From positions 1,536,001-1,600,000 of the forward strand of contig CAWCKJ010000004.1 in NCBI GenBank assembly GCA_963796105.1: a stretch of DNA of 64,000 nucleotides, given 5' to 3'. The stretch's first letter is position 1, and the number at the start of each line of letters is the position of its first letter. Position numbers and translations under genes: made by a program. The DNA comes from a candidate division FCPU426 bacterium (GTDB lineage: Bacteria > Oederibacteriota > Muellerivitia > Muellerivitales > Muellerivitaceae). Below, in pieces: positions 2,618 through 61,521 of the stretch. The notes below the pieces were generated by a model. That model saw nothing but the letters and a program-made list of their open reading frames with translations, searched no databases and had not been told where the DNA came from.

Positions 2618-4075
2618 ATGTTCGAACAAGCATTTAAAAACATTGATGATGTGCTTTATAAAGAAGATGGTTGCAGCACGGAACTCGATTATGCCGAGCA
2701 ATCCTCTTGGCTCCTTTTCTTAAAATACCTCGATGGGTTAGAGCAGGAACGCGCGACGGCGGCTAAGCTGGACGGCAAGAGATACAGCTATATCCTCGAT
2801 GAACCTTATCGCTGGGCGTCTTGGGCCGCGCCTAAAACTAAGGATGGAAAATTAGACCATAACAATGCCCAAACCGGCGATGATTTGCGCGACTTTGTGG
2901 ATAAAAAACTTTTCCCGTATTTTCGGGCATTTAAGAGTAAGGCGAGTGGGCCCAACACCATCGAATACAAAATCGGGGAAATCTTTAGTGAGATAAAAAA
3001 TAGGATTCAAAGCGGTTACAACATGCGCGAGATCATCGACCACATCGATGAATTGCGGTTCGGCTCACAAAAAGATAAGCACGAACTTTCCCACCTATAC
3101 GAAGCCAAGATAAAGAATATGGGAAACGCCGGGAGGAATGGCGGTCAGTATTACACTCCCCGCCCATTGATCCGGGCCATTATCCAGGTCGTTAAGCCCG
3201 AATTAGGGGAGCGCATTTACGACGGGGCGGTCGGGTCTGCGGGCTTCTTATGCGAGTCTTACAACTACCTCTTGGCCAACAATCCCAAACGATCCACGGC
3301 ACAGGATAAGACCTTGCAAGAGCGTACCTTTTATGGGAAGGAAAAGAAGTCCCTCGCCTATGTCATAGCCATCATGAACATGATTTTACATGGCATTGAA
3401 GCGCCTAATATCATCCATACCAACACGCTTTCCGAGAACCTCGCCGACATCCAGGAAAAAGACCGTTATGAGGTTGTAGTAGCCAATCCGCCCTTTGGTG
3501 GTGGGGAACGAAAGGAAGTTCAGCAAAATTTTCCCATCCGCACCGGGGAAACCGCCTTTTTGTTCCTTCAGCATTTCATCAAAATCCTAAAAGCTGGTGG
3601 ACGCGGCGGCGTAGTTATCAAAAACACTTTTCTATCCAATACCGATAATGCCTCCACCTCTCTGCGTAAACTGCTCTTGGAAAGTTGCAACCTCCATACC
3701 GTGCTCGATTGCCCCGGAGGTACGTTCCTGGGCGCGGGGGTAAAGACCGTTGTACTCTTCTTCGAGAAAGGCGTACCCACCCGGAAGATTTGGTATTACC
3801 AGCTTGATCCTGGCCGCAACATGGGCAAGACCAACTCACTTAACGACGATGACCTTTCCGAATTTGTGAAGTTGCAAAAGAAATTCGCCGATTCACCAAA
3901 GTCGTGGTCGGTGGATGCCAAGGGTATTGATAAGGAAACCTTCGATCTTTCCGTAAAGAACCCCAACGGTGGCGAGGAAGTTAAACACCGTAATCCAAAG
4001 GCGATCATGGACGAAATTGCCAAGCTCGATTCAGAAAGCGCCAAAGTGTTGGGAAACATCAGGAAGTTGGTATGA
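2618..4075 (+). CDS. hsdM: Type I restriction-modification N6-adenine methyltransferase subunit M
   Basis: GQYYTPR, DGAVGSAGF (motif I), ANPPF (motif IV). Confidence 0.95.
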   Translation: MFEQAFKNIDDVLYKEDGCSTELDYAEQSSWLLFLKYLDGLEQERATAAKLDGKRYSYILDEPYRWASWAAPKTKDGKLDHNNAQTGDDLRDFVDKKLFPYFRAFKSKASGPNTIEYKIGEIFSEIKNRIQSGYNMREIIDHIDELRFGSQKDKHELSHLYEAKIKNMGNAGRNGGQYYTPRPLIRAIIQVVKPELGERIYDGAVGSAGFLCESYNYLLANNPKRSTAQDKTLQERTFYGKEKKSLAYVIAIMNMILHGIEAPNIIHTNTLSENLADIQEKDRYEVVVANPPFGGGERKEVQQNFPIRTGETAFLFLQHFIKILKAGGRGGVVIKNTFLSNTDNASTSLRKLLLESCNLHTVLDCPGGTFLGAGVKTVVLFFEKGVPTRKIWYYQLDPGRNMGKTNSLNDDDLSEFVKLQKKFADSPKSWSVDAKGIDKETFDLSVKNPNGGEEVKHRNPKAIMDEIAKLDSESAKVLGNIRKLV

Positions 4076-5247
4076 AAAACGGATGGGAAATAAAAAAACT
4101 TGGCGATGTTAGTGATTTCGAAGGAGGTTCTCAACCGCCGAAATCGAAATTCATATTTGAAAAGAGACCGGGTTATGTGCGTTTTCTTCAAATTCGGGAT
4201 TTTACCAAAGATAAAAATATTACTTATATACCTGAATCGAAAAAGAATCGACTCTGCAAAGAAGATGACATACTGATTGGAAGGTATGGCGCTTCGGTTG
4301 GAAAGATTTTGACAGGTAAGGCGGGTGCTTACAACGTGGCTTTAATGAAGACCAAGCCAAATTTGGCTTTGTTTGAGAAATCTTGGTTTTATAATTATCT
4401 CGTATCAGATGAGTTTCAAGGCCGCTTGGCTAATGTTGCTGACCGTTCAGCTCAAAATGGATTTAGCAAAGAAGATATATTTAATTTTCCTGTGCCCATT
4501 CCTCCGCTTACCGTACAGAAACGGATTGTCGGCATTCTCGACGAAGCGTTTGAGGGTATCACCACTGCCAAAGCCAACGCCGAAAAGAATCTCCAAAACG
4601 CCCGCGCCATCTTTGAAAGTCATCTCCAATCCGTCTTCACCAAGCCCGGCGGGGGGTGGATGGAGAAACGTCTAGTAGAGATTGCGCAAGAATTTGGTCG
4701 TGGTAAGTCTAAGCATCGTCCGCGTAATGACCCCAAACTCTACGGCGGCAAATACCCGTTCGTCCAGACGGGAGATGTCAGCAACGCTGATCACTGGCTA
4801 ACAAACTACTCCCAGACCTATGGCGAAGTTGGTCTAGACCAAAGTCGGTTGTGGCCGAAAGGGACTATCTGCATCGCAATTGTCGGGGCAACTGTTGGCG
4901 AAACTGCAATTCTTAACTTCGAAGCATGTTTTCCAGACAGCGTAATCGGGATCATAGTTAATGAGAAGCTCGCGGATAACGAGTATGTAGAATACTTGCT
5001 TCAATCATACAAAGCACTCTTGAAAGAGAAGGGGCAGGGCACAGCGCGCGATAATATTAATCTTGGGACATTTGAAAACCAAACTTTTCCATTCCCGTCG
5101 TTGAAGTTGCAGAAAGAAATTGTGGTTACGCTTAATGCGCTACACAAAGAAACCCAACATCTTGAATCCATCTACCAGCACAAGCTCGAAGCGCTGGAAG
5201 AATTGAAAAAGTCATTGCTGAACCAAGCCTTCACCGGAGAATTATAG
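4072..5247 (+). CDS. hsdS: Type I restriction-modification specificity subunit S
   Basis: Two TRDs with conserved PIPPLTVQKRIV / PFPSLKLQKEIV and LKKSLLNQAFTGEL; ATGA overlap with hsdM; lower GC. Confidence 0.95.
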   Translation: MKNGWEIKKLGDVSDFEGGSQPPKSKFIFEKRPGYVRFLQIRDFTKDKNITYIPESKKNRLCKEDDILIGRYGASVGKILTGKAGAYNVALMKTKPNLALFEKSWFYNYLVSDEFQGRLANVADRSAQNGFSKEDIFNFPVPIPPLTVQKRIVGILDEAFEGITTAKANAEKNLQNARAIFESHLQSVFTKPGGGWMEKRLVEIAQEFGRGKSKHRPRNDPKLYGGKYPFVQTGDVSNADHWLTNYSQTYGEVGLDQSRLWPKGTICIAIVGATVGETAILNFEACFPDSVIGIIVNEKLADNEYVEYLLQSYKALLKEKGQGTARDNINLGTFENQTFPFPSLKLQKEIVVTLNALHKETQHLESIYQHKLEALEELKKSLLNQAFTGEL

Positions 5248-5250
5248 ATA

Positions 5251-6447
5251 ATGCCCATTCCTGATAACAAACCACCGCAATCCAGCATTGTCCTCTACCG
5301 GACGGAGGACGGACGCACGCGCATCCAATGCCGGTTTGAAAATGAGACAATCTGGCTTACGCAAGTGCAAATCGCAGAACTGTTTCAAACTACCGTGCCT
5401 AATGTCAATCAACATATCAAGGCCATATATGACGAAGGCGAATTAGCCGAAGAGGCAACTATTAAGTCTTACTTAATAGTTCGATCCGAAGGCTCCAGGG
5501 AGGTTTCCCGCGATGTGATGCATTACAGTCTTCCTGCCATCCTCGCTGTCGGCTACCGTGTACGCAGCTCCCGAGGTACGCAGTTCCGCCAGTGGGCGAC
5601 AACGCGCTTGAACGAGTACCTGGTGAAGGGTTTCACCATGGACGATGAACGCCTGAAAAACCCCCCGGGACCAGGCTATACGGACTATTTCGACGAGTTG
5701 CTGGAGCGTATCCGGGACATCCGGGCCAGCGAGCGCCGGGTTTATTTGCGGGTCAGGGAAATACTGGCCTTGGCCGCCGACTACAAGCCCACCGGCGGGG
5801 AAACCAAGGTTTTCTACCAAACCGTCCAAAACAAGCTTCATTTCGCCGCCACAGGCAAAACCGCCTCCGAATTGATCGCGCAAAGGGCTGACGCTAAAAA
5901 GCCCAACATGGGCCTGACCTCCTGGAAAAGCGGCGTGGTGCGCAAGGGCGACGTGACAGTGGCCAAAAACTACCTGCGCGAACCCGAGATCGACGAACTG
6001 AACCGCATCGTCGTCATGTTCCTCGATTTCGCCGAGGACCAGGCCCGCCGGCGCAAACAGATATTCCTGAGGGACTGGAAAACCCGATTGGATGCTTTCC
6101 TGAAATTCAACGAGCGCGCCGTACTGCCCGGGGCCGGGAAGATCAGCCATGAAAAAGCGGAAGCGATGGCGGAAAAAGAATACGAGCTTTTCGCCGAAAG
6201 GCGCCGCGCCCAGCTTGAGGAGGAAGCCGAAACGGATACCCTTCGTCAGCTTGAGGCTGAGGTCAAGGGACGACCCTTCGGGTCGCCACTTGGGCGGGGC
6301 ATGGAACCCCGCCCAAGTACACGGCTAGGCTCTCGGGCATCTGGCTACACTAAAGCTTCGCCAGATAGGCGCCCGGAGCCTCGGCAGCCGGTGAAAAAAC
6401 TGCCCAAGCGGAAGAAACCCAGGAAGGGCAAGCCATGTACCGATTAA
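5251..6447 (+). CDS. Virulence RhuM family protein
   Basis: IWLTQVQIAELF, VGYRVRSSRGTQFRQWAT, LVKGFTMDDERLK, DYFDELLERIRDIRASERR; C-terminal palindromic insertion. Confidence 0.93.
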   Translation: MPIPDNKPPQSSIVLYRTEDGRTRIQCRFENETIWLTQVQIAELFQTTVPNVNQHIKAIYDEGELAEEATIKSYLIVRSEGSREVSRDVMHYSLPAILAVGYRVRSSRGTQFRQWATTRLNEYLVKGFTMDDERLKNPPGPGYTDYFDELLERIRDIRASERRVYLRVREILALAADYKPTGGETKVFYQTVQNKLHFAATGKTASELIAQRADAKKPNMGLTSWKSGVVRKGDVTVAKNYLREPEIDELNRIVVMFLDFAEDQARRRKQIFLRDWKTRLDAFLKFNERAVLPGAGKISHEKAEAMAEKEYELFAERRRAQLEEEAETDTLRQLEAEVKGRPFGSPLGRGMEPRPSTRLGSRASGYTKASPDRRPEPRQPVKKLPKRKKPRKGKPCTD

Positions 6448-6739
6448 TATTTTTATTATTCTAGGGAATCGGCACTATGCTGGGCCGGTTCTCCTATGGA
6501 ACCTGCACCATCAAAACGAGTGCCTCGGCCGGAAGCCTCGGCACAGATAGACTTTTTTAATAATAATTTTAAACAGAAGGTCAGCATGTACCGATTAATA
6601 TTTTCGATAATTCATGGAAATCGGCACTATACCGGCCTCAGTATAAAAACTTCCATTAGAAGGTCAGCATGAACGAAGCCGAGACCAGGGCCGAACACAT
6701 AGACCCGGCGTTGAAAAACGCGGGGTGGGGCGTGGTGGA
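6435..6739 (+). repeat. Direct repeat block: 151-bp unit + 83-bp unit + 71-bp copy of hsdR 5' end
   Basis: 6435-6585 ~ 10935-11085; 6586-6668 ~ 11086-11168 and 11169-11251; 6669-6739 = 11252-11322. Confidence 0.95.
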
Positions 6740-6749
6740 ATGAAGAGCC

Positions 6750-6985
6750 GATAAAGAGGGTTGGAATTGAACCGTCGACAGTTTGTCGACAGTCCAATAG
6801 GGCATACATCTTTGAAGATAAAGAATTGCGCCGGAAAGCAACTGTTCGGAAATTCCGAATAGTTTGAAATGAAGGCGGACGAGAGGCAGTTATCCGGAAA
6901 TCCCGGATAGCTCGTTTTGTGGGTGTGCGCGGTGGCGAATGAGTAGAGCCGGCAACTTGTAAGGATTAATTACAAGTTCGAAAGG
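6750..6985 (+). pseudogene. Four short RhuM/Bro-N gene fragments, each centred on a 25-bp palindrome
   Basis: Fragments read GIEPSTVCRQ, YIFEDKELRRKATVRKFRIV*NEGGRE, AVIRKSRIA and GGE*VEPATCKD*LQVRK; compare rhuM IYDEGELAEEATIKSYLIVRSEGSRE and Bro-N GSESVTNCHQLK. Confidence 0.75.
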
Positions 6986-6992
6986 GGCGTTT

Positions 6993-7829
6993 ATGAAGCA
7001 ACTGTTAGCCAAATTTGAAGGCCATGCCATCCGCCGAGTTTATGACGAGGATACTGAAACCTGGTGGTTCTCCGTGGTAGATATTATGCGGGTGCTGACC
7101 CAACAACCGGATTACCAGACCGCCCGCAAATACTGGAACAAGCTAAAAGAGCGGCTGGTTAAAGAAGGCAGTGAGTCGGTGACAAATTGTCACCAACTGA
7201 AACTTCCCGCCTCCGACGGCAAAAGTTACCTCACCGATGTCGCCACCGCCAAGACGCTATTGCGCCTGGTGCAGTCTGTGCCCAGTCCCAAGGCGGAACC
7301 GATCAAGTTGTGGCTGGCCAAGGTGGGCCACGAGCGCCTGAAAGATATGGCGGACCCAGCTCTTTCCCTGGATCGCGCCCGCGAGTATTGGAAACAGCAG
7401 GGCCGAAGTGAGAAGTGGGTCCAACAGCGCATGATGGGCCAGGAAACCCGGAACAAACTGACGGATTACTGGAAAGGCCACGAGATCAAGGGAGATGACG
7501 AATACGCCCTGTTGACCGACCTGATCCACCGGGAATGGGCGGATGTTTCGGTGAAACAGCACAAACAAATGAAGGGGCTCAAGACCCAAAATCTTCGCGA
7601 CCACATGACGGAGGCGGAATTGATCTTTACGGCTTTGGCCGAGCTTTCCACCCGGCAAATGGCCGAGAGTGTTGAAGCCACCGGGTTGAATGAGAATAAA
7701 ACAGCGGCCAAAAAGGGCGGCCATATCGCCAAAAACGCGCGGCTTGACCTGGAAAGCAAGACCGGGAAAAGGGTCATTACCGGCGATAATTATCTGCCGC
7801 CGCAACGCCGCATCACTGGAAAGAAATAA
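6993..7829 (+). CDS. Bro-N domain / phage antirepressor-like DNA-binding protein
   Basis: IRRVYDEDTETWWFSVVDI, ARKYWNKLKERL, LVQSVPSPKAEPIKLWLA, NLRDHMT. Confidence 0.88.
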   Translation: MKQLLAKFEGHAIRRVYDEDTETWWFSVVDIMRVLTQQPDYQTARKYWNKLKERLVKEGSESVTNCHQLKLPASDGKSYLTDVATAKTLLRLVQSVPSPKAEPIKLWLAKVGHERLKDMADPALSLDRAREYWKQQGRSEKWVQQRMMGQETRNKLTDYWKGHEIKGDDEYALLTDLIHREWADVSVKQHKQMKGLKTQNLRDHMTEAELIFTALAELSTRQMAESVEATGLNENKTAAKKGGHIAKNARLDLESKTGKRVITGDNYLPPQRRITGKK

Positions 7830-7852
7830 TGTACCGATTAATCTTTTTAATA

Positions 7853-9496
7853 CCTGAATTTTGCGCCTAATAAAAAAACCATCTAGGAAACCATTATAGG
7901 ATAAGGGTTGCGAAGCCAACTCATCCTAAAAGAGGGTCCCCCAGATGGTGAAACGTCAAGATACGCCTCAGAAATCAAACCCGCAAGTCCAGAAAAAAGC
8001 CAATCGAAACGGGAGAATCGCGCCCAAGATTACGGCCAATACTCCCGTAGGTATTTGCGAAGACCGCCTAACAGCTTTTGGCGGATTGTTGGCATTGGCG
8101 AAGATGTTCGACCTTCTTGATTTTGAGCGGGAATTCAAAAAACACTATGCCGCACCTAAACGCCTTCCGAATTTGGGCCACTACCGGATGGTAAGCGGCA
8201 TCCTAATGCTTCTTTTCATCGGGTTTCAAAGGCTTGGCCATTTTGCCTACCTGAGGGGTGAGGTCATGCTGTGCGGTTTACTGCGGGTTCCCTTGTTGCC
8301 GGTAGTGACAACTTTTTGGAGATACCTGAGGTCGCTGGGGATCGGGCAGTCGGCATCGTTGCTGAATCTGAGTGGGGCGTTACGGGCCAAGGTTTGGGGA
8401 CAGGTGAAATATGCCCCCAAGAAGGTGGAGATCAACATCGATACCACCACCGCAACGGTCTACGGAAATATCGAGGGAAGCCGAAAAGGATACAACCCCA
8501 AGCACCGGGGCAAGAAGGGACTGAGGCCCATTCTGTGTTTTCTCCAGGAAACCCGGGAATATTTGTGCGGAACCCAAAGACGCGGAACCACCCTTAGTTC
8601 TGAGGAAGTGGCCCGCCAAATTAGACAATTCCGGCGACTCTTGCCGTCCTGTGTCCGGACGATTCTGGTGCGCGGTGACGGTGAAATGATCGGCTGGGAA
8701 AGCGTGAAAGCCTGTGAAAAAGAAGGGTTTTCTTTCATCTTCGGGAACAAGCGGCATGACCCGCCTTTCACGAAAAAGGGTTGGTACCGCCATGGAGAAC
8801 ACGAATACAACGAATGTGTCCATCAACCCATAGGCTGGCAACAACCAGTCCGGTTTGTGGCGATGAGGACGCTGGATGAAAAAGCGCGGGAGAAACAATT
8901 GAGCCTTCCTGAAATGGAAGGATATGTCTACCGAATCTTCGCGACCAACTGTCTGGGAGCACCCCATCGGGTGGTTGAGGAATACGACCTGCGCGCGGAT
9001 GTGGAAAACCTGATTGGTGAGGCGCAACGGGAGGGGTTATTAGCAATTCCCTCTAAGAGTTTCCAAAGCCACCATGCTTTTTTCCAGATCGTGATGCTGG
9101 CTTACAACCTCTGGAGGTGGATGAAACTAATGGTGGGCCATTGTGGAAAAGAAAAGCGACCGGGAAAGAAGCCACAGGAGAAGGAACAGATCACCATGCC
9201 GGACCATACCCTTCGGATCGCACGTTTGAAGATGCTCTTTGTAGCCGCCCGAATCCAGTATCACGGCCATCGGGATGTGGTGAGGTATTCAATCCATGAT
9301 GATAGGACAGCGGGCCTATTGGGTTTCCTCAAATACCTTGATCGAAAACGATTGGAAAGACCCAGGGCGGCCTAGAAGTGGCTTGGTGCAAAAAATTCTT
9401 TGCACATAAGTTCACTTCTGATGAAAATGGCCACTGTCGGGTCCCGATTCAGGCCGATCTGGCCACGGAATCGGTAAACTCGGTGCAAAATTCAGG
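7853..9496 (+). mobile_element. IS1380-family insertion sequence
   Basis: Terminal IRs CCTGAATTTTGCGCC / GGTGCAAAATTCAGG; 5-bp target duplication TAATA at 7848-7852 and 9497-9501. Confidence 0.9.
7945..9375 (+). CDS. IS1380-family DDE transposase
   Basis: LTAFGGL, INIDTT, GYNPKHRGKKG, LVRGDG, YDLRADVENLIGE, LAYNL. Confidence 0.9.
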   Translation: MVKRQDTPQKSNPQVQKKANRNGRIAPKITANTPVGICEDRLTAFGGLLALAKMFDLLDFEREFKKHYAAPKRLPNLGHYRMVSGILMLLFIGFQRLGHFAYLRGEVMLCGLLRVPLLPVVTTFWRYLRSLGIGQSASLLNLSGALRAKVWGQVKYAPKKVEINIDTTTATVYGNIEGSRKGYNPKHRGKKGLRPILCFLQETREYLCGTQRRGTTLSSEEVARQIRQFRRLLPSCVRTILVRGDGEMIGWESVKACEKEGFSFIFGNKRHDPPFTKKGWYRHGEHEYNECVHQPIGWQQPVRFVAMRTLDEKAREKQLSLPEMEGYVYRIFATNCLGAPHRVVEEYDLRADVENLIGEAQREGLLAIPSKSFQSHHAFFQIVMLAYNLWRWMKLMVGHCGKEKRPGKKPQEKEQITMPDHTLRIARLKMLFVAARIQYHGHRDVVRYSIHDDRTAGLLGFLKYLDRKRLERPRAA

Positions 9497-9519
9497 TAAT
9501 AATTAATGGAGAGTCGGCA

Positions 9520-9620
9520 TGTACGAAGCTGAAACCAGAGCCGAACACATAGACCCGGCGTTGAAAAATACCGGGTGGGGCGTTGTGGACGGCAGCCGCG
9601 TACTGCGGGAATACCAAATG
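9520..9620 (+). pseudogene. Degenerate copy of the hsdR 5' end
   Basis: atgtacgaagctgaaaccagagccgaacacatagacccggcgttgaaaaat...gggaataccaaat aligns to 11252-11352. Confidence 0.85.
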
Positions 9621-9723
9621 ACCGCAGGATAGACAAATGCCTAACACCCGGCCTCCTTGACACCCCCCAAAGCCCTGATTTATAATCCTTGAAAATTGAA
9701 AGGCAGGCTTACGGATTTCACGA

Positions 9724-10890
9724 ATGAAAAAATGGATCCCCAGACCCCGGCTTGAACAAGAATTGGCGCGTTCCCTCAAAACGTGGCGCGTCACCTGCCT
9801 ATTGGGCCCCCGCCAATGCGGCAAAACCAGCGCGGCTAAGGCCGTCGCCGGGAAGGCCAAGGCCCATTATTTCGACCTGGAGGACCCCGACGATTTTGAG
9901 CGCCTTCAAAACGCGAAGGCCGTCCTTTCGCCCATCAAGGGCCTGGTGGTGCTGGATGAGGCCCAGCGCATGCCCCAGTTGTTTCCCGTCCTGCGGGTTT
10001 TGGCGGACCGCAAGCCCCTTGCGGCCAGGTTCCTGATCCTGGGCAGCGCCTCGCCTGAACTGGTCAAGGGCGTGACCGAGTCGCTCGCGGGGCGGGTCCA
10101 TTACATCGAAATGGAAGGCTTCCAACTTTCCGAGGTCGGCGTTCCGGGCATGGAAAGGCTTTGGGTCCGGGGCGGCTTTCCCGGTTCCTACCTGGCCGCC
10201 TCCTTGGCCCAGAGCCTTTCCTGGAGGGAAGATTACATCCGGAATTTCCTGGAACGGGACATTCCCCAACTGCATATCCGCATACCCGCCCTGGCCCTCC
10301 GCCGTTTTTGGACCATGGTGGCCCACTACCACGGGCAGATTTGGAACGCCACGGAGATCGCGGGGTCCATGGGAATCAGCCATCCCACGGCCCGCCAGTA
10401 CCTGGACCTTTTGACCGGGGCTTTCGCGATCCGGCAATTGGCCCCATTGGCGGTGAACCTCTCGAAGAGGCTGGTCAAGTCGCCCAAAATTTACATCCGC
10501 GACAGCGGAATTTTTCACGCCCTTCTCGCGGTGCCGGATATGGGAAGGCTCCAGTCCAACCCGAAATACGGCGCCTCCTGGGAAGGTTTCGCCCTGGAGC
10601 ATTTGCTGGCCATGGCGGGGGAAAGGCACGCGGCTTTCTGGTCCACCCATGGGGGGGCCGAGCTGGACCTGGTCATCGAAACGGCAAAAGGCCGGTTCGG
10701 CTTCGAGTTTAAGGCCGCCGGGAGCCCCGGAATGACCCGGTCCTTGCACGAGGCCTTGAAGGATTTGAAACCGAAACGCATTTGGGTGGTTCACCCGGGG
10801 GAGAAAGCCTACCCCCTTCATGAAAAAGTGGATGCTTTGCCGTTAAGCCAATTGGAAACCCTAAGAAAAACGATCGGGGCCCAAACGTAA
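9724..10890 (+). CDS. AAA+ ATPase (AAA_14 + DUF4143 type)
   Basis: GPRQCGKT Walker A, LDEAQ Walker B, SLAGR, RGGFP, KSPKIYIRDSG, ELDLV..FEFK C-terminal nuclease-like motif. Confidence 0.92.
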   Translation: MKKWIPRPRLEQELARSLKTWRVTCLLGPRQCGKTSAAKAVAGKAKAHYFDLEDPDDFERLQNAKAVLSPIKGLVVLDEAQRMPQLFPVLRVLADRKPLAARFLILGSASPELVKGVTESLAGRVHYIEMEGFQLSEVGVPGMERLWVRGGFPGSYLAASLAQSLSWREDYIRNFLERDIPQLHIRIPALALRRFWTMVAHYHGQIWNATEIAGSMGISHPTARQYLDLLTGAFAIRQLAPLAVNLSKRLVKSPKIYIRDSGIFHALLAVPDMGRLQSNPKYGASWEGFALEHLLAMAGERHAAFWSTHGGAELDLVIETAKGRFGFEFKAAGSPGMTRSLHEALKDLKPKRIWVVHPGEKAYPLHEKVDALPLSQLETLRKTIGAQT

Positions 10891-10934
10891 AGGCGCAAGA
10901 ATCCGCCTGGGATAAAACCCAAGAAGGGCAAGCC

Positions 10935-11251
10935 ATGTACCGATTAATATTTTTAACAATTCATGGGAATCGGCACTATGCCGGGCCGGTTCCCCTATGG
11001 AACCGGCACCATCAAAACGAGTGCCTCGGCCGGAAGCCTCGGCACAGATAGACTTCCTTATAAAAATTTCCAATAGAAGGTCAGCATGTACCGATTAATA
11101 TTTTCGATAATTCAAGGAAATCGGCACTATACCGGCCTCAGTATAAAAACTTCCATTAGAAGGTCAGCATGTACCGATTAATATTTTCGATAATTCAAGG
11201 AAATCGGCACTATACCGGCCTCAGTATAAAAACTTCCATTAGAAGGTCAGC
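10935..11251 (+). repeat. 151-bp unit + two tandem 83-bp units immediately upstream of hsdR
   Basis: Each unit begins ATGTACCGATTAATA and ends AGAAGGTCAGC; 11086-11168 and 11169-11251 read identical. Confidence 0.95.
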
Positions 11252-13606
11252 ATGAACGAAGCCGAGACCAGGGCCGAACACATAGACCCGGCGTTGAAAA
11301 ACGCGGGGTGGGGCGTGGTGGACGGCAGCCGCATTTTGCGGGAATACCAAATTACTCCCGGGCGCATCGAGGGGGTGGGGAGACCCAATAAGCCTTCGAT
11401 TGCCGATTATGTGTTGGTCTATCGAAACAACAAGATGGCCGTGGTGGAAGCCAAGGCTTGGGATGAGGAATTAACCGAAGGGGTTGGCCAGGCCAAGGCC
11501 TACGCGGACAAAATGGCTGTTCGGTTCGCCTATTCCACCAACGGCCAGGGCGTTTACCAGATCGACATGCAGACCGGCAAAGAGGGCAAGTTATCTGCTT
11601 TTCCAACGCCCGATCAGCTTTGGGCCGCGACTTTTTCCGAAGCGAACGCCTGGCGGGACCGTTTCTCCGAAGTGCCTTATGAGGACAAAAGCGGCAGTCA
11701 TCCATCGCGCTTTTACCAGGACATCGCCATTGACCGGGTGATGGAGGCTATCGCGGCAAAGAAAAACCGCATCCTGCTTACCCTGGCCACGGGAACGGGA
11801 AAGACCTTTATCGCATTCCAGATCGCCTGGAAACTTTTCCATAGCCGATGGAACCTGAGCGGCCAACCCACCCGCCGTCCCCGAATTCTTTTCCTCGCCG
11901 ACCGCAACAACCTGGCCGACCAGGCCTATAACGCTTTTTCCGCGTTTGCCGAGGACGCATTGGTTCGCATCAAGCCGGACGAGATCCGGAAAAAGGATCG
12001 GGTGCCGACTAACGGGAGCATCTTCTTCACGATTTTCCAAACTTTTATGAGCGGCCCGCCCAAGGAGGGGAAGCCGCCTGTCCCTCAAAGCCCAGCGGGC
12101 GTAGTGGGATCGCCCTATTTCGGCGATTACCCGAAAGATTTCTTCGATTTTATCGTGATTGACGAGTGCCATCGCGGAGGGGCGAACGATGAAAGCAATT
12201 GGCGCGGCATCATGGAATATTTTTCCCCGGCCGTGCAGTTGGGCCTCACGGCTACACCCAAGCGCCAGGAGAACGCGGATACCTACGCCTATTTCGGCGA
12301 ACCGGTTTATATCTATTCCCTGAAGGAAGGCATCAACGATGGGTTCCTCACACCCTTCAAGGTGCGGCAGATATCCACGACATTGGATGAATATGTCTAT
12401 ACCCAGGACGATAACGTTGTTGAGGGTGAAATCGAGGCGGGCAAAAGGTACACCGAGCCCGACTTCAACCGGATCATCGAAATCAAGGAACGCGAAGCCT
12501 ACCGGGTGAAACTGTTCATGGACCAGATCAACCAGAACGAGAAAACCCTGGTCTTTTGCGCCACGCAAGCCCACGCTTTGGCGGTTAGGGACCTGGTCAA
12601 TCAGATGAAGACCAGCACAGATCCCAACTATTGCCAAAGGGTCACGGCCGATGAGGGGGAACTTGGAAACCAGTACTTGCGGGATTTCCAGGACAACGAA
12701 AAGACCATCCCGACCATTTTGACCACTTCCCAGAAGCTCTCCACCGGGGTGGATGCCCGCAACGTGCGCAATATCGTGCTGATGAGGCCGATCAATTCCA
12801 TGATCGAGTTCAAGCAGATCATCGGCCGGGGGACCCGCCTTTATGACGGCAAGTATTACTTCACGGTTTACGACTTCGTGAAGGCCCACCACCACTTTAA
12901 CGACCCGGAATGGGACGGGGAACCACTGGAGCCGGAACCGAAAGAGCCGAAATACAAGGATGATCATCATCACCCGGGGGCGAGTGAAAAAAAGGCTGAA
13001 CATGATAGACCGCAAAGAGTCAAAATAAAACTCGCCGATGGGAAAGCCCGTACCATCCAATCAATGATGGTCACGAGTTTCTGGCATCCCGACGGGACTC
13101 CCATGAGCGCCCAACAATTCATGGAATTGCTATTCGGGAAATTACCAGGATTTTTCAAGAACGAGGCAGAGCTTCGCGCGATTTGGAGCGCGCCGGACAC
13201 GCGCCAGGGATTATTAGAAGGTCTTTCCGAGAAAGGTTTCGGGAAGGATCAACTTACCGAGATGCAAAAGATCATTGACGCGGAAAAGAGCGACTTATTT
13301 GATGTATTGGCTCACGTAGCTTATGCTTTGGCGCCCTTGACCCGCGAGGAACGAGCCCAAAAGGCAAAACCCCAGATCAGCGCCCAATTCAACGCCCACC
13401 AGCAGGCTTTCCTTGATTTCGTGCTCGACCATTATGTAAATGATGGGGTGGAAGAGTTGGAAACCTCGAAGCTGACGCCTCTTCTTCGCCTCAAGTACCA
13501 CAATGCTCTTCAAGACGCCTTGGCTGACCTAGGCCCAGCCGAAACAATCAATAAAATGTTCTTCGGCTTCCAGAAGTACCTTTACCAACCTGTAACATCG
13601 AACTGA
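11252..13606 (+). CDS. hsdR: Type I restriction enzyme subunit R (EcoAI/EcoEI-like)
   Basis: ADYVL..VVEAK nuclease motif, LATGTGKT, IDECHR, GLTATP, QIIGRGTR. Confidence 0.95.
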   Translation: MNEAETRAEHIDPALKNAGWGVVDGSRILREYQITPGRIEGVGRPNKPSIADYVLVYRNNKMAVVEAKAWDEELTEGVGQAKAYADKMAVRFAYSTNGQGVYQIDMQTGKEGKLSAFPTPDQLWAATFSEANAWRDRFSEVPYEDKSGSHPSRFYQDIAIDRVMEAIAAKKNRILLTLATGTGKTFIAFQIAWKLFHSRWNLSGQPTRRPRILFLADRNNLADQAYNAFSAFAEDALVRIKPDEIRKKDRVPTNGSIFFTIFQTFMSGPPKEGKPPVPQSPAGVVGSPYFGDYPKDFFDFIVIDECHRGGANDESNWRGIMEYFSPAVQLGLTATPKRQENADTYAYFGEPVYIYSLKEGINDGFLTPFKVRQISTTLDEYVYTQDDNVVEGEIEAGKRYTEPDFNRIIEIKEREAYRVKLFMDQINQNEKTLVFCATQAHALAVRDLVNQMKTSTDPNYCQRVTADEGELGNQYLRDFQDNEKTIPTILTTSQKLSTGVDARNVRNIVLMRPINSMIEFKQIIGRGTRLYDGKYYFTVYDFVKAHHHFNDPEWDGEPLEPEPKEPKYKDDHHHPGASEKKAEHDRPQRVKIKLADGKARTIQSMMVTSFWHPDGTPMSAQQFMELLFGKLPGFFKNEAELRAIWSAPDTRQGLLEGLSEKGFGKDQLTEMQKIIDAEKSDLFDVLAHVAYALAPLTREERAQKAKPQISAQFNAHQQAFLDFVLDHYVNDGVEELETSKLTPLLRLKYHNALQDALADLGPAETINKMFFGFQKYLYQPVTSN

Positions 13607-13864: not shown

Positions 13865-14341
13865 ATGACCCGCTACCCATTGTTCTTTACCTACAGCTTT
13901 ACGATTCCCGGGAATAATTTTTTGGCCACCATCAGAATATCGAATGGACAGGCTCTGATGGTCCAAGACGAGGATGAGTGGTGGATGTACGGTGTTTGCC
14001 CCGGTTCTATCTCCGACGGCGGCGCTACGCCCCAAGAAGCTTATTTAAAATTCTGCGATACCTTCAAACAGATTCTGGAAGATATCGCTTTTGATAAACA
14101 CGATTTTCAGTCGTTTGAATCGGAAGTTAAAAGCTTTGTCCTGGCCGCGGATGCCAGCGAGCAAAAAGAGTGGTTAAACGCCCGGGAGTCGATACGTTCA
14201 GGACAAATACAGCCGGAGGGCCCATTTAAGGATTTAAAGCGCATTACGACCGATCCTGGCGTAATGGTTACGGTGTCGTGCCTAGACGTTAAAAAATCTT
14301 TTGAAGTTGCGGCCGATAACCAATTAGCTGCCGCGGCTTGA
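13865..14341 (+). CDS. Hypothetical protein, HicB-like antitoxin candidate
   Basis: WWMYGVCPGSISDGGATPQEAYLKF resembles the HicB 'P....G.T.EEA' motif; adjacent to a HicA-like ORF. Confidence 0.5.
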   Translation: MTRYPLFFTYSFTIPGNNFLATIRISNGQALMVQDEDEWWMYGVCPGSISDGGATPQEAYLKFCDTFKQILEDIAFDKHDFQSFESEVKSFVLAADASEQKEWLNARESIRSGQIQPEGPFKDLKRITTDPGVMVTVSCLDVKKSFEVAADNQLAAAA

Positions 14342-14342
14342 G

Positions 14343-14618
14343 TTGACCTCGACTGGTCAATGCCGCCTAAGCATTATCAGGGAAATGCTGGAACATTGCG
14401 TCCCGGGTTCTCATTTGGAGTTAAAAAAACATCATTATTGGGTTTATTGCCCTGGAAAAGAAATTTTCAGGGATTTGCCCAAGGGGGAACATGGTGCGCA
14501 AGACCCGGAAATCCAAATGGGAAAAATCAAGAAAATGGTCCGGTTTCTTGGGATAGAAGAATGCGCATCCGGTTTTATCCCGGGAATAAAGTTCAAGCAA
14601 ACCGCATCGGAAGGTTAA
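14343..14618 (+). CDS. Small protein, HicA-like toxin candidate
   Basis: ~90 aa, KKHHYWV...LPKGEHG..EIQMGKIKKMVRFLGI resembles the HicA pattern. Confidence 0.5.
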   Translation: MTSTGQCRLSIIREMLEHCVPGSHLELKKHHYWVYCPGKEIFRDLPKGEHGAQDPEIQMGKIKKMVRFLGIEECASGFIPGIKFKQTASEG

Positions 14619-14653
14619 CCACATGAGTATTTCCAGGGAAGAAAATTAACACT

Positions 14654-15259
14654 ATGGCTACCCCGTTCCAATACCGGAAAATCACCCAAGCGATAAATTT
14701 TTTCGCTGAAAAAGAAAATAATAAAACCATCAACGTCACAAAAGTCGTAAAACTCCTCTGGGCCGCCGATCGATATCACTTACGTAAATACGGAAGATTA
14801 TTAACTTGCGATAATTACGTCGCGATGGAAAGGGGCCCGGTGGGTTCAACGGTTAAAGACATCGCGGAAGAAAGCAATTTTTTACCCGCCGGCATTGATT
14901 CATATTCGACCAAATACCTGAAGCCTAGGCAATATGTGACCCAGTCATGCCGTGAAGCCGATATGAAAGTGTTTTCACAAACTGATATTGAAGCTTTGGA
15001 ATTTGCCAATACTAATTTTGGCTCCATGTCCCAAAGCGAATTAACGCATTTATCACATCAATATCCGGAATGGAAAAGATTCGAGGGGAAATTAAAGTCC
15101 AAAGCTAGTTTGAAAGAAGATATCGACTTCCTTGATTTCTTTCTCGATCCAAACCCTGAAAACGTCCCGGACGATAAATTCAAAATGGATGACGAGCTTT
15201 TAGCTTTAAGCAAGGATATTTTCTCTGAAGAGACTGAAATTACGGGTTTGCTTTCTTGA
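14654..15259 (+). CDS. Panacea (DUF4065/SocA-like) antitoxin domain protein
   Basis: TKVVKLLWAADRYHLRKYGRLL, YVAMERGPV, ELTHLSHQYPEW. Confidence 0.85.
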   Translation: MATPFQYRKITQAINFFAEKENNKTINVTKVVKLLWAADRYHLRKYGRLLTCDNYVAMERGPVGSTVKDIAEESNFLPAGIDSYSTKYLKPRQYVTQSCREADMKVFSQTDIEALEFANTNFGSMSQSELTHLSHQYPEWKRFEGKLKSKASLKEDIDFLDFFLDPNPENVPDDKFKMDDELLALSKDIFSEETEITGLLS

Positions 15260-15265
15260 AAAATC

Positions 15266-15700
15266 ATGACACTTACACCGGAAGAATTAAATGATTATAT
15301 TTTTCCAGGTTCCGTACTTCGCTTAAGCAATTCCAATACCTTTTCCGTAGAACCCCATTACCATATCATCCTGAATAAAAATCCGCTAACTGATCCGGAC
15401 ATAGTCATGGTTATTGCTTCGACCAACATCGAGGGAAGATTGCGGCATGCGCAAAAAACAGGCAAGGCTCCATCGACATTGTTGATTTTTGAAAATAAAG
15501 ATTGTTCTTTTTTAAGCGAGGAATCTATTTTTGATTGTAATTCGCCCTCCGCCATTTCCTTGAGCGCCCTTTATGACAAATATAATTGTGGGGAATGGAC
15601 AATTAAGAATAAATTTTCAGTGTCACCTGAGATATTGGAGAAATTTAGAAATGCGGTTCGGCTTAGCGCTGCTGCGGCCTATTTTAAGGAATTGCTTTAA
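15266..15700 (+). CDS. Hypothetical protein, PemK/MazF-like toxin candidate
   Basis: PGSVL..PHYHIILN..FLSEESIFDCN pattern; 6 nt downstream of the Panacea gene. Confidence 0.5.
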   Translation: MTLTPEELNDYIFPGSVLRLSNSNTFSVEPHYHIILNKNPLTDPDIVMVIASTNIEGRLRHAQKTGKAPSTLLIFENKDCSFLSEESIFDCNSPSAISLSALYDKYNCGEWTIKNKFSVSPEILEKFRNAVRLSAAAAYFKELL

Positions 15701-60372: not shown

Positions 60373-61521
60373 GTGATCCAACGTCCAGAACTTATTAAAC
60401 GGATCGAGTCCGGTTTGAAATCCAGCCCCATCACCACGCTCTTGGGGCCCCGCCAATGCGGCAAGACTACCCTGGCCCGGCAGGTTTCCCAAACCGGGAA
60501 GTCCCATTACTTCGACCTGGAAAAAAGAGGGGACTTGGCGCGCCTGGAGAATCCCGAAAGGACCTTGGAGGGATTGCGGGGCATGGTGGTGTTGGACGAA
60601 ATCCAGCGCAAACCGGACCTCTTCCCCCTCTTACGGGTCCTTGCGGACCGCAAACCCCTGCCAGCCCGGTTTCTATTATTGGGCAGCGCTTCACCTTGGC
60701 TGATGAAGCACACCTCCGAATCGTTGGCGGGCCGGGTGCGTTTCATTGAAATGGGTGGTTTCGCGCCTTGGGAAGCGGGTTGGAAAAACCAGGAACTCCT
60801 TTGGGTCCGGGGGGGGTTCCCGCCTTCCTTCCTCGCCTCGACAGGAGAGGACAGCTTGGCTTGGCGTGAAAACTTCATCCAAACTTTCCTGGAAAGGGAT
60901 ATTCCCCAGCTTGAAATCCGCGTTCCAGCCGCGACCCTCGGGCGATTCTGGACGATGGTGGCCCATTACCACGCCCAGGTTTGGAACGCGTCTGAGATCG
61001 GGGCATCCCTGGGTTTCTCCCACAACGCGGCACGCCGGTACCTGGACGCGCTTTCCGGGGCTTTTGTCCTGCGCCAACTGCGGCCTTATTTCGCCAACCT
61101 TGGCAAACGGCTCGTGAAATCCCCGAAGGTCTATGTCCGGGACAGCGGTTTGTTGCACGCGCTTTTAAACCTCCGGACCATCAAGGAACTGGAGTCCCAT
61201 CCCATACTGGGCGCTTCTTGGGAGGGCTTCGCCTTGGAACAGGTCTTGCGTCTTACGGGGGAACGGAACGCCTTCTTCTGGGGAACCCATGCCGGCGCGG
61301 AATTGGACTTGCTGGTGGAGAAAGGGGGGAAACGGTGGGGCTTTGAGTTTAAGATGGATGACGCCCCCTCCTTGACTAAATCCATGCGGATGGCCTTGGG
61401 GGATTTGAAGCTGGAGCATTTGTGGGTGGTTCATCCGGGGGAAGCCGCCTACTCCTTGGACAAAAAGGTGGATGTCATTCCACTAAGCGGTTTGGAACGG
61501 CTGCCCAAAGCTTTGTATTAG
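60373..61521 (+). CDS. AAA+ ATPase (AAA_14 + DUF4143 type), paralog of 9724..10890
   Basis: GPRQCGKT, LDEIQ, SLAGR, KSPKVYVRDSG, ELDLL..FEFK. Confidence 0.92.
   Translation: MIQRPELIKRIESGLKSSPITTLLGPRQCGKTTLARQVSQTGKSHYFDLEKRGDLARLENPERTLEGLRGMVVLDEIQRKPDLFPLLRVLADRKPLPARFLLLGSASPWLMKHTSESLAGRVRFIEMGGFAPWEAGWKNQELLWVRGGFPPSFLASTGEDSLAWRENFIQTFLERDIPQLEIRVPAATLGRFWTMVAHYHAQVWNASEIGASLGFSHNAARRYLDALSGAFVLRQLRPYFANLGKRLVKSPKVYVRDSGLLHALLNLRTIKELESHPILGASWEGFALEQVLRLTGERNAFFWGTHAGAELDLLVEKGGKRWGFEFKMDDAPSLTKSMRMALGDLKLEHLWVVHPGEAAYSLDKKVDVIPLSGLERLPKALY

Follow-up and report, generated by a model that had tools for sequence, protein, structure and literature searches.

Duplicated hsdR starts as likely seams between stacked cargo genes in a type I restriction operon overlaid by a mobile twin-hairpin repeat

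The stretch of DNA analysed here (the window; 64,000 nucleotides, positions 1,536,001 to 1,600,000 of contig CAWCKJ010000004.1, or G000:C4:1536001-1600000 in our genome set) comes from the 4.98-Mb genome of a candidate division FCPU426 bacterium and contains a complete type I restriction operon in which hsdM, hsdS, and hsdR are all intact. Three accessory genes (rhuM, broN, and an ATPase gene) lie between hsdS and hsdR, all on the same strand. Two extra copies of the hsdR start, together with a repeat of the final 21 bp of rhuM, are read here as seams between these stacked cargo genes, and the ATGTACCGATT units found beside them are assigned by sequence to a genome-wide mobile repeat of ~78 bp with twin hairpins that is distinct from the seams. 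The locus shows a recurrent signature of defence-cargo stacking in type I operons, on which a mobile repeat unrelated to it is superimposed. The original prediction for this DNA had described the repeats and interpreted them as cassette-like insertion at the hsdR start codon; the observation is confirmed and the interpretation partly supported.

The duplicated pieces are arranged as two junction copies with a further hsdR start between them (all features of the locus lie on the forward strand). The first junction copy (6415..6739, 325 bp) consists of the last 21 bp of rhuM, a composite twin-hairpin unit of 151 bp inserted at the TG of the hsdR ATG (L1, 6436..6586), a twin-hairpin unit of 83 bp (S1, 6587..6669), and the first 71 bp of hsdR (6669..6739), which match the real start at 71/71 positions and form a mini open reading frame of 24 codons. 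The second (10915-11322) begins with the repeated rhuM end (10915..10935) and continues through units L2 (151 bp), S2, and S3 (83 bp each), which stand in tandem and share the TG (10936..11252), into the intact hsdR; S2 and S3 are mutually identical, and the end of S3 yields the purine run GAAGG ahead of the hsdR ATG. The diverged hsdR start (9519..9628) is 86% identical to the real one, measured over 110 bases, and follows a 41-bp single-hairpin unit that an insertion sequence (IS) of the IS1380 family has split into a left part (7830..7852) and a right part that includes the target duplication (9497..9519). The starts of hsdR number three in the locus, at 6669, 9519, and 11252. The sequence ATGTACCGATTAAT begins at 6435, 6586, 7829, 10935, 11086, and 11169, and exact copies of TGTACCGATTAAT occur in the genome at those six positions only. 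All of the repeats originally described, including the exact 71-bp start, the diverged start, the recurrent rhuM end, and the short unit interrupted by IS1380 (which has a 5-bp TAATA target duplication at 7848-7852 and 9497-9501), were recovered at or within a base of the expected places.

Identity between the two junction copies is uneven: the 151-bp unit matches at 137 of 152 columns, the 83-bp unit at 82 of 83, and the hsdR part at 71 of 71, such that a stretch of 165 bp at 99.4% identity lies beside L1 and L2, which are 9% diverged. Between the diverged hsdR start and the real one 15 of 108 bases are different, distributed over the three codon positions as 5/0/10 (third-position excess, p = 0.009), and the nearest relative of the diverged start is the resident hsdR, the hsdR starts of the other loci compared reaching at most 77%. 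Because ten of the 15 changes are in third positions of codons and second positions are unchanged, this copy looks like a captured sister allele and not a decayed in-place duplicate; it would fit a working allele of a sister lineage with broN before hsdR, a gene order also present in genome G053. The rhuM end at 10915-10935 is one base off the resident rhuM and equals the allele of G002, a member of the same family that belongs to another genus and is not conspecific. In G002 the junction is empty, single-copy, and without units, and the rhuM stop overlaps the hsdR start, from which it follows that the units of the window sit in the TG of the hsdR ATG. The proposal that genes were added at the rhuM/hsdR junction with duplication of junction pieces is supported. 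The stop codon of rhuM now falls within the first repeat unit and that of broN abuts the TG of the next ATG; rhuM itself, common to G002 and G026, is older cargo.

Support for the assembled joints was sought in sequencing runs, whose best share of words with the genome was 0.13. A 248-base contig of run X1, which may be the source sample, spans the 6739/6740 joint with one difference, and the contigs of X1 and the other runs gave no coverage of the joints near 9630 and 10914. Two X4 contigs (depth about 2) also touch the locus: one, on window 9411-9502, has an IS1380 end that runs into a twin-hairpin right arm of another copy, and one, on window 9519-9550, carries a 32-bp hsdR start amid unrelated sequence and is a possible further seam. 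Deletion between the direct repeats, which is plausible, would take out 4500 or 4583 bp; the rhuM stop and hsdR would then still be 304 or 221 bp apart, so that hsdR would not come to lie directly behind rhuM as had been suggested. No such deletion joint was present among the joints listed for six runs, the contigs being thin and the coverage too low to argue absence.

Seams of the same kind occur in related type I loci. The loci sampled were the best 80 of 435 genome loci, the best 80 of at least 552 metagenome loci, and five relatives. Copies of the hsdR 5' end were found upstream at 4 of 140 testable loci (hsdM 5' control, 0/84), and matches to the hsdS 3' end were found downstream at 6 of 118 loci, two of them set aside as noise (hsdR 3' control, 0/143). 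Self-comparison of the slot between hsdS and hsdR, together with a 17-base start motif that has 9 matches in 101 kb of slot versus 7 poor ones in 966 kb of control, added L045, L187, L138, and L075. The hand-curated union of these three tests comprises 10 loci (L045 begins at a contig end); rows removed from the count were L039 (7-mer repeats of a four-helix-bundle gene), L024 (a 24-bp match past the slot), and L170 (a weak 17-mer). Amongst non-redundant loci, seams are concentrated in long slots, with 8 of 18 above 1.5 kb, 2 of 49 between 0.3 and 1.5 kb, and 0 of 46 below. By their record titles, the named seam loci belong to Bacteroidota, Oryzomonas, Nitrospirales, and Polyangiaceae bins, and their cargo includes GmrSD, Fic, Zeta toxin, IrrE with DUF4411, nucleotidyltransferase pairs, an amidase, and a SnoaL protein. 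The comparison of loci for differing cargo agrees with the original prediction (more than 300 bp separate hsdS and hsdR in 73 of 123 loci), and the recurrence of stacking in unrelated genomes and the match of cargo to defence-candidate models support it as well.

The details of these seams bear on how they were made. The duplicated part of hsdR ranges from about 17 to 186 bp elsewhere and is 71 and about 110 bp here, a variation that argues against one fixed recombination site. Three loci (L089, L054, and L100) show a fusion of an hsdR start with an hsdS end ahead of the next cargo gene, which is the joint expected if a piece made of hsdS end, cargo, and hsdR start had closed on itself. The joint of L089 falls on a 7-base word common to hsdR and hsdS and that of L100 on a 4-base word; shared words between the hsdR 5' and hsdS 3' ends are frequent by chance (mode 7 bases), and only their coincidence with a joint counts. 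For L054 a microhomology was considered and rejected, as extra bases intervene. In 34 of 67 loci with cargo, the stop codon of the final cargo gene overlaps the start of hsdR; joints exactly at the ATG are thus common without units. One viral contig with this hsdR had neither cargo nor seam, and the second type I hsdR of the genome (C12) had no upstream hsdS match and no seam. The hsdS 3' copies in L187:64-4579, L100, L105, and L045 begin about 95 bases before the stop and each follow a vestigial start codon, reflecting shared descent or a preferred joint. A signature unlike the seams is seen in many single-cargo slots (L037, L041, L042, L055, L065, L081, L123, and others), where the cargo, of four-helix-bundle and PD-(D/E)XK types where checked, is flanked by short tandem or palindromic repeats.

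The twin-hairpin units have a distribution of their own. The unit is not special to this locus; a regular expression for it matches 80 times in the genome versus 0 times in each of three shuffles, and a unit profile gives 196 non-overlapping matches at 164 places, including 11 tandem arrays of up to 8 units. The repeat possesses a terminal inverted repeat, the same two bases flank 145 of 153 full units (TG 130, CG 12, TA 3), and a 2-bp target duplication is demonstrated. When a unit and one dinucleotide are removed, the reconstructed empty site occurs elsewhere in the genome exactly for 56 of 114 unit places and with one mismatch for 88 of 114 (four control joins: 0-1 exact; one-mismatch counts of 1, 1, 10, and 1), although the 114 places are not independent, many of the targets being repeats, and two of the 56 exact cases are the studied locus. 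Paralogous regions of contigs C1 and C16 provide two filled/empty pairs at ATG codons, with the empty paralogues of the two C1 start-codon sites on C16. Units in the TG of start codons were also seen at G000 C1:59802, C1:68043, C4:750249, C6:188542, C13:4731, and C2:389977 as well as at 11170-11252 of the window; several precede lipoprotein-like genes, and the right end of the unit gives a purine run right before the ATG.

Across 22 hand-picked units the stems are 96% paired with 35 compensatory cells, a level reached by 0 of 500 shuffles, in a test where the structure was drawn from the same 22-unit alignment and the control therefore favours pairing. The 83-bp units of the window fold weakly (z of -0.2 to -1.6), and the hairpin claim derives from covariation in the family, not from folding of the window's copies. 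The sequence between the hairpins is CTA, CGA, or CAA, and a GTAG or CGTC tag is absent from the alignment. Of 30 genomes from the same family, 23 contain the unit pattern, against none of 30 from outside it. The locus-specific unit motif has 0 matches in the 30 family genomes; an Rfam scan of 6200-11400 produced only one chance-level match, and viral contigs gave 0 matches to one narrowed pattern. A search of the neighbours of units for the enzyme that moves them revealed no gene family recurrently flanked by units, no IS with ends matching the units was found among unit neighbours or the multi-copy elements listed, and there were no HUH-motif genes other than Y1 elements. The 14 long Y1 genes of the genome carry their own inverted repeats. 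These Y1 transposases are about 310 amino acids (aa) long with a DnaA-like C-terminus and lie inside terminal inverted repeats at 14 places (e.g., L196 and L197); the one gene checked passes the cut-off of NF047646, the model for repetitive extragenic palindromic (REP)-associated transposases. Y1 counts do not track unit counts, as G021 has 10 units and no Y1 match and G026 has 8 units and 20 matches.

Since seam loci elsewhere vary in position and carry no twin-hairpin unit (0 in 166 outside loci, 2.0 Mb, all seam-bearing ones included), the units are regarded as independently inserted passengers and not as cassette sites. The suggestion that a unit plus an hsdR 5' end forms the cassette boundary is thereby not supported.

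The origin that we consider somewhat probable from the comparison of the copies is that part of a sister allele was circularised at a chance joint and then entered the locus by one homologous crossover in the shared hsdR start. The donor piece would have carried the remnant at 6740-6992, broN, the old hsdR start, the ATPase gene, the rhuM end, units, and hsdR as far as +71, and its closure at hsdR+71 would have created the 6739/6740 joint. A crossover within the 165-bp, 99.4%-identical stretch would leave the L1 of the recipient and the L2 of the donor on either side, and would therefore account for the 9% divergence of L1 and L2 by their different parentage. The donor allele was likely built by earlier similar events, represented by the joints near 9630 and 10914. 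Restriction would survive every addition, because an intact hsdR start would be kept at each step, and the twin-hairpin repeat, entering the TG of the hsdR ATG independently, would lengthen the homology available to later crossovers. A dedicated recombinase would not be needed. As the original prediction had stated, no recombinase is encoded nearby, with no tyrosine (PF00589), serine (PF00239), or IS110 (PF02371) match in the window; its further idea of a recombinase acting in trans finds candidates elsewhere in the genome (36 tyrosine, 2 serine, and 1 IS110 matches, the nearest PF00589 match on the same contig being >1 Mb from the locus), but the variability of the joints speaks against their involvement. 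Also in favour of the proposed origin is the presence of a competence gene.

Several points weigh against this origin. Neither a circle nor a close conspecific genome came to light, and the 30 family genomes yielded no donor allele; only G002 and G026 of them have a close hsdR, both without the stack. The hsdR-start/hsdS-end fusion of L089, L054, and L100 is not present in the window. Codon-position bias is mixed in other loci (2/2/3 and 7/1/8 in L089; 0/0/4 and 5/7/9 in L187), the 160 loci compared were taken as the best-scoring matches rather than at random, and two of the seam loci, L100 and L187, are related to each other. The near-identity over 165 bp could stem from later gene conversion, and a linear, one-ended event yields the same product, indistinguishable by sequence.

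Such a linear event, in which one side of a linear donor or sister chromosome recombines homologously in hsdR and the other illegitimately at a short shared word, with the illegitimate joint inside the recipient hsdR start and with later stacking via unequal crossover between copies, is a possible but not a probable explanation. It would leave an identical final structure; seams on short words common to the hsdR 5' and hsdS 3' ends agree with it, as do the joint of L089, which appears twice in diverged copies as unequal crossover would leave it, and the microhomologies of 3-10 bp described for the process (PMC3240628). According to that paper, however, the process mostly gives deletions, and it accounted for 4 of 60 clones versus 56 of 60 for circle-crossover duplications. 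Repair of a junction break, during which foreign DNA is inserted and the resident target is copied, a route proposed for restriction genes that entered with long target duplication, would likewise explain a 325-bp direct repeat over a stop and a start that flanks a 4.2-kb insert without an integrase, as in PMC2853133, and hsdR parts identical over 71 bp. Duplication in place is nevertheless unlikely, given that the copies differ by 9% in L yet by 0-1% beside it, that the second rhuM end is the G002 allele and not the resident one, that the copy at 9519 has diverged mainly at third positions, and that target duplication does not produce the order of hsdR start then hsdS end before cargo seen elsewhere. 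An assembly chimera of strain variants is scarcely credible: the genome comes from an uncultured population (as inferred from the run list) and no contig spans the joints near 9630 and 10914, but the 6739/6740 joint is bridged by a contig from a separate assembly, sequence differences set the copies apart, the target duplication of the IS is clean, and the same architecture occurs in unrelated assemblies.

The remaining explanations give the units an active part. In one of them recombination takes place at the twin-hairpin units, and their mobilising enzyme also swaps cargo at the TG border as in an integron-like array. Two different genes, rhuM and broN, end exactly at the TG border, the unit family is mobile with covarying stems, one locus-specific unit subtype precedes each of the three hsdR starts, and CA, the complement of TG, is among the dinucleotides at which REP transposases cut (PMC8266576). 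Set against this are the lack of units in the 166 other loci, seam-bearing ones included, the cargo stops that overlap hsdR starts without units, the right-hand joints that fall inside hsdR at differing positions, and the Y1 transposase counts, which are unrelated to unit counts. Local duplicates accompany 18 of 197 low-copy unit flanks, five of these being the studied locus and several being self-matches of long arrays, and no clear gene-start seam was recognised among the other duplicated flanks (not each inspected in full). We therefore rate this use of the units as very unlikely. Hardly less doubtful is an active joint, suggested by that same subtype before all three starts, at which an enzyme cuts the TG border of the unit and cargo with an hsdR tail is excised and rejoined there. 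If true, it would mean that a mobile repeat had grafted a transposase-run cassette array onto an ordinary recombination hotspot, the unit also supplying hsdR with a new ribosome-binding site.

The genes of the locus were assigned much as the original prediction had them (RhuM, Bro-N, AAA_14/DUF4143, and an HsdR of EcoEI/EcoAI type). The operon starts with the type I methyltransferase gene hsdM (2618..4075) and the specificity subunit gene hsdS (4072..5247), followed by rhuM (5251..6447; PF13310, PADLOC PDC-S05), which contains an in-frame insertion of 129 bp (6262..6390) that is another genome-wide palindromic repeat and is not present in G002; a copy of this repeat at C4:617939 is itself split by a twin-hairpin unit. 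A decayed remnant (6740..6992), which from its translation motifs and an X4 contig, without profile confirmation, we take to resemble the front of a RhuM-like gene, precedes broN (6993..7829; PF02498, PADLOC PDC-S13). The IS1380-family element (7853..9496, transposase 7945-9375) has about 20 near-identical copies in the genome and is a later insertion, the last to arrive in the locus. A 12/12 match to the sigma-70 consensus (9657..9686; consensus only) stands before the AAA_14/DUF4143 ATPase gene (9724..10890; PADLOC PDC-S01), and this predicted promoter could drive hsdR too. The ATPase gene has a GC content of 61% versus 54% in hsdR. The intact hsdR (11252..13606) belongs to the EcoAI/FtnUII family and scores above the cut-off of NF046051. 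From their matches to PADLOC candidate models (E-values of 1e-161 for rhuM with PDC-S05, 2e-116 for broN with PDC-S13, and 3e-79 for the ATPase with PDC-S01), the three embedded genes are defence candidates.

Related features were noticed in the surroundings. A paralogue of the ATPase gene lies at about 60431-61497 of the window (66% DNA identity), and two further related ATPase genes adjoin twin-hairpin units (G000 C4:423264-424865 and C2:116058-117746), the former lying between two direct copies of a repeat that carries a unit. Directly upstream of hsdM is a tandem array of short units (about 1400-2000), similar to an array that adjoins a Y1 element on C7, and a twin-hairpin unit in reverse orientation occupies 1199-1272. 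Four small genes after hsdR (13865-15700), encoding products of 158 aa and 91 aa without family match, a SocA/Panacea-domain protein, and a product of 144 aa without match, resemble two toxin-antitoxin pairs.

The embedded genes of type I operons are a main source of new defence candidates, and the hsdR-start and hsdS/cargo-end seams in 8 of the 18 long slots suggest a concrete route of entry without a dedicated recombinase. The seams also supply module borders that tell which cargo genes travelled together, and the twin-hairpin repeat is a second mobile element, restricted to the family, whose empty sites are proven. Cargo embedding and insertion with long duplication are already published; no paper on seams between hsdS and hsdR turned up in the literature, as searched by titles and abstract openings (subscription papers and supplements lying outside the scope).

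Embedding of genes in type I restriction-modification (R-M) operons has been described as 'guilt by embedding', with PrrC as the classic case (bioRxiv 10.1101/2024.01.29.577857), and the main text of that report is without the words 'recombination' or 'duplication' and leaves the route of embedding open. The window shares with those operons the same-strand accessory genes within a complete type I operon and the families PDC-S05, PDC-S13, and PDC-S01, and differs in the seams described here; its rhuM, broN, and ATPase genes are only candidate defence genes. Insertions with long variable duplications that span starts or stops, with whole R-M systems as the insert, are known from PMC2853133. The window agrees with these in an insert of <20 kb (about 4.2 kb), a duplication of >30 bp (325 bp), an imperfect repeat over stop and start, the lack of an integrase, and an empty site in a relative; those inserts contain R and M, whereas 6740-10914 contains accessory genes and a 110-bp hsdR piece, and here the cargo goes inside the operon, the events stack, and the copies look like different alleles. 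In Escherichia coli, a re-circularised donor integrated by a single crossover produced duplications of 109-950 bp in 56 of 60 clones, with one-ended illegitimate recombination in the other 4 of 60 (PMC3240628). Insertion with a variable-length duplication of the shared end and no dedicated recombinase is common to both cases; the donor there was an engineered plasmid, integrated in about 6 in 10^9 recipients, whereas the cargo here is natural and the homology short (about 165-325 bp).

The twin-hairpin repeat likewise has known counterparts. With REP dimers, bacterial interspersed mosaic elements (BIMEs), and REP doublets forming hairpins (REPINs) it shares high-copy hairpin doublets, tandem arrays, nesting in other palindromes, and lineage restriction (PMC3733652, PMC3116915, PMC8266576), and it differs from them in having no GTAG/CGTC tag, long A+T-rich loops, a 2-bp duplication, start-codon insertion, and no unit-flanked transposase gene found. 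The terminal inverted repeat and target-site duplication are those of a MITE, a miniature transposable element with inverted repeats. Integron cassette arrays also have stacked same-strand genes with hairpin-like repeats between, but the window has no integrase and no fixed crossover point, and seams occur without repeats. The seams and the twin-hairpin repeat both belong to kinds of system already known.

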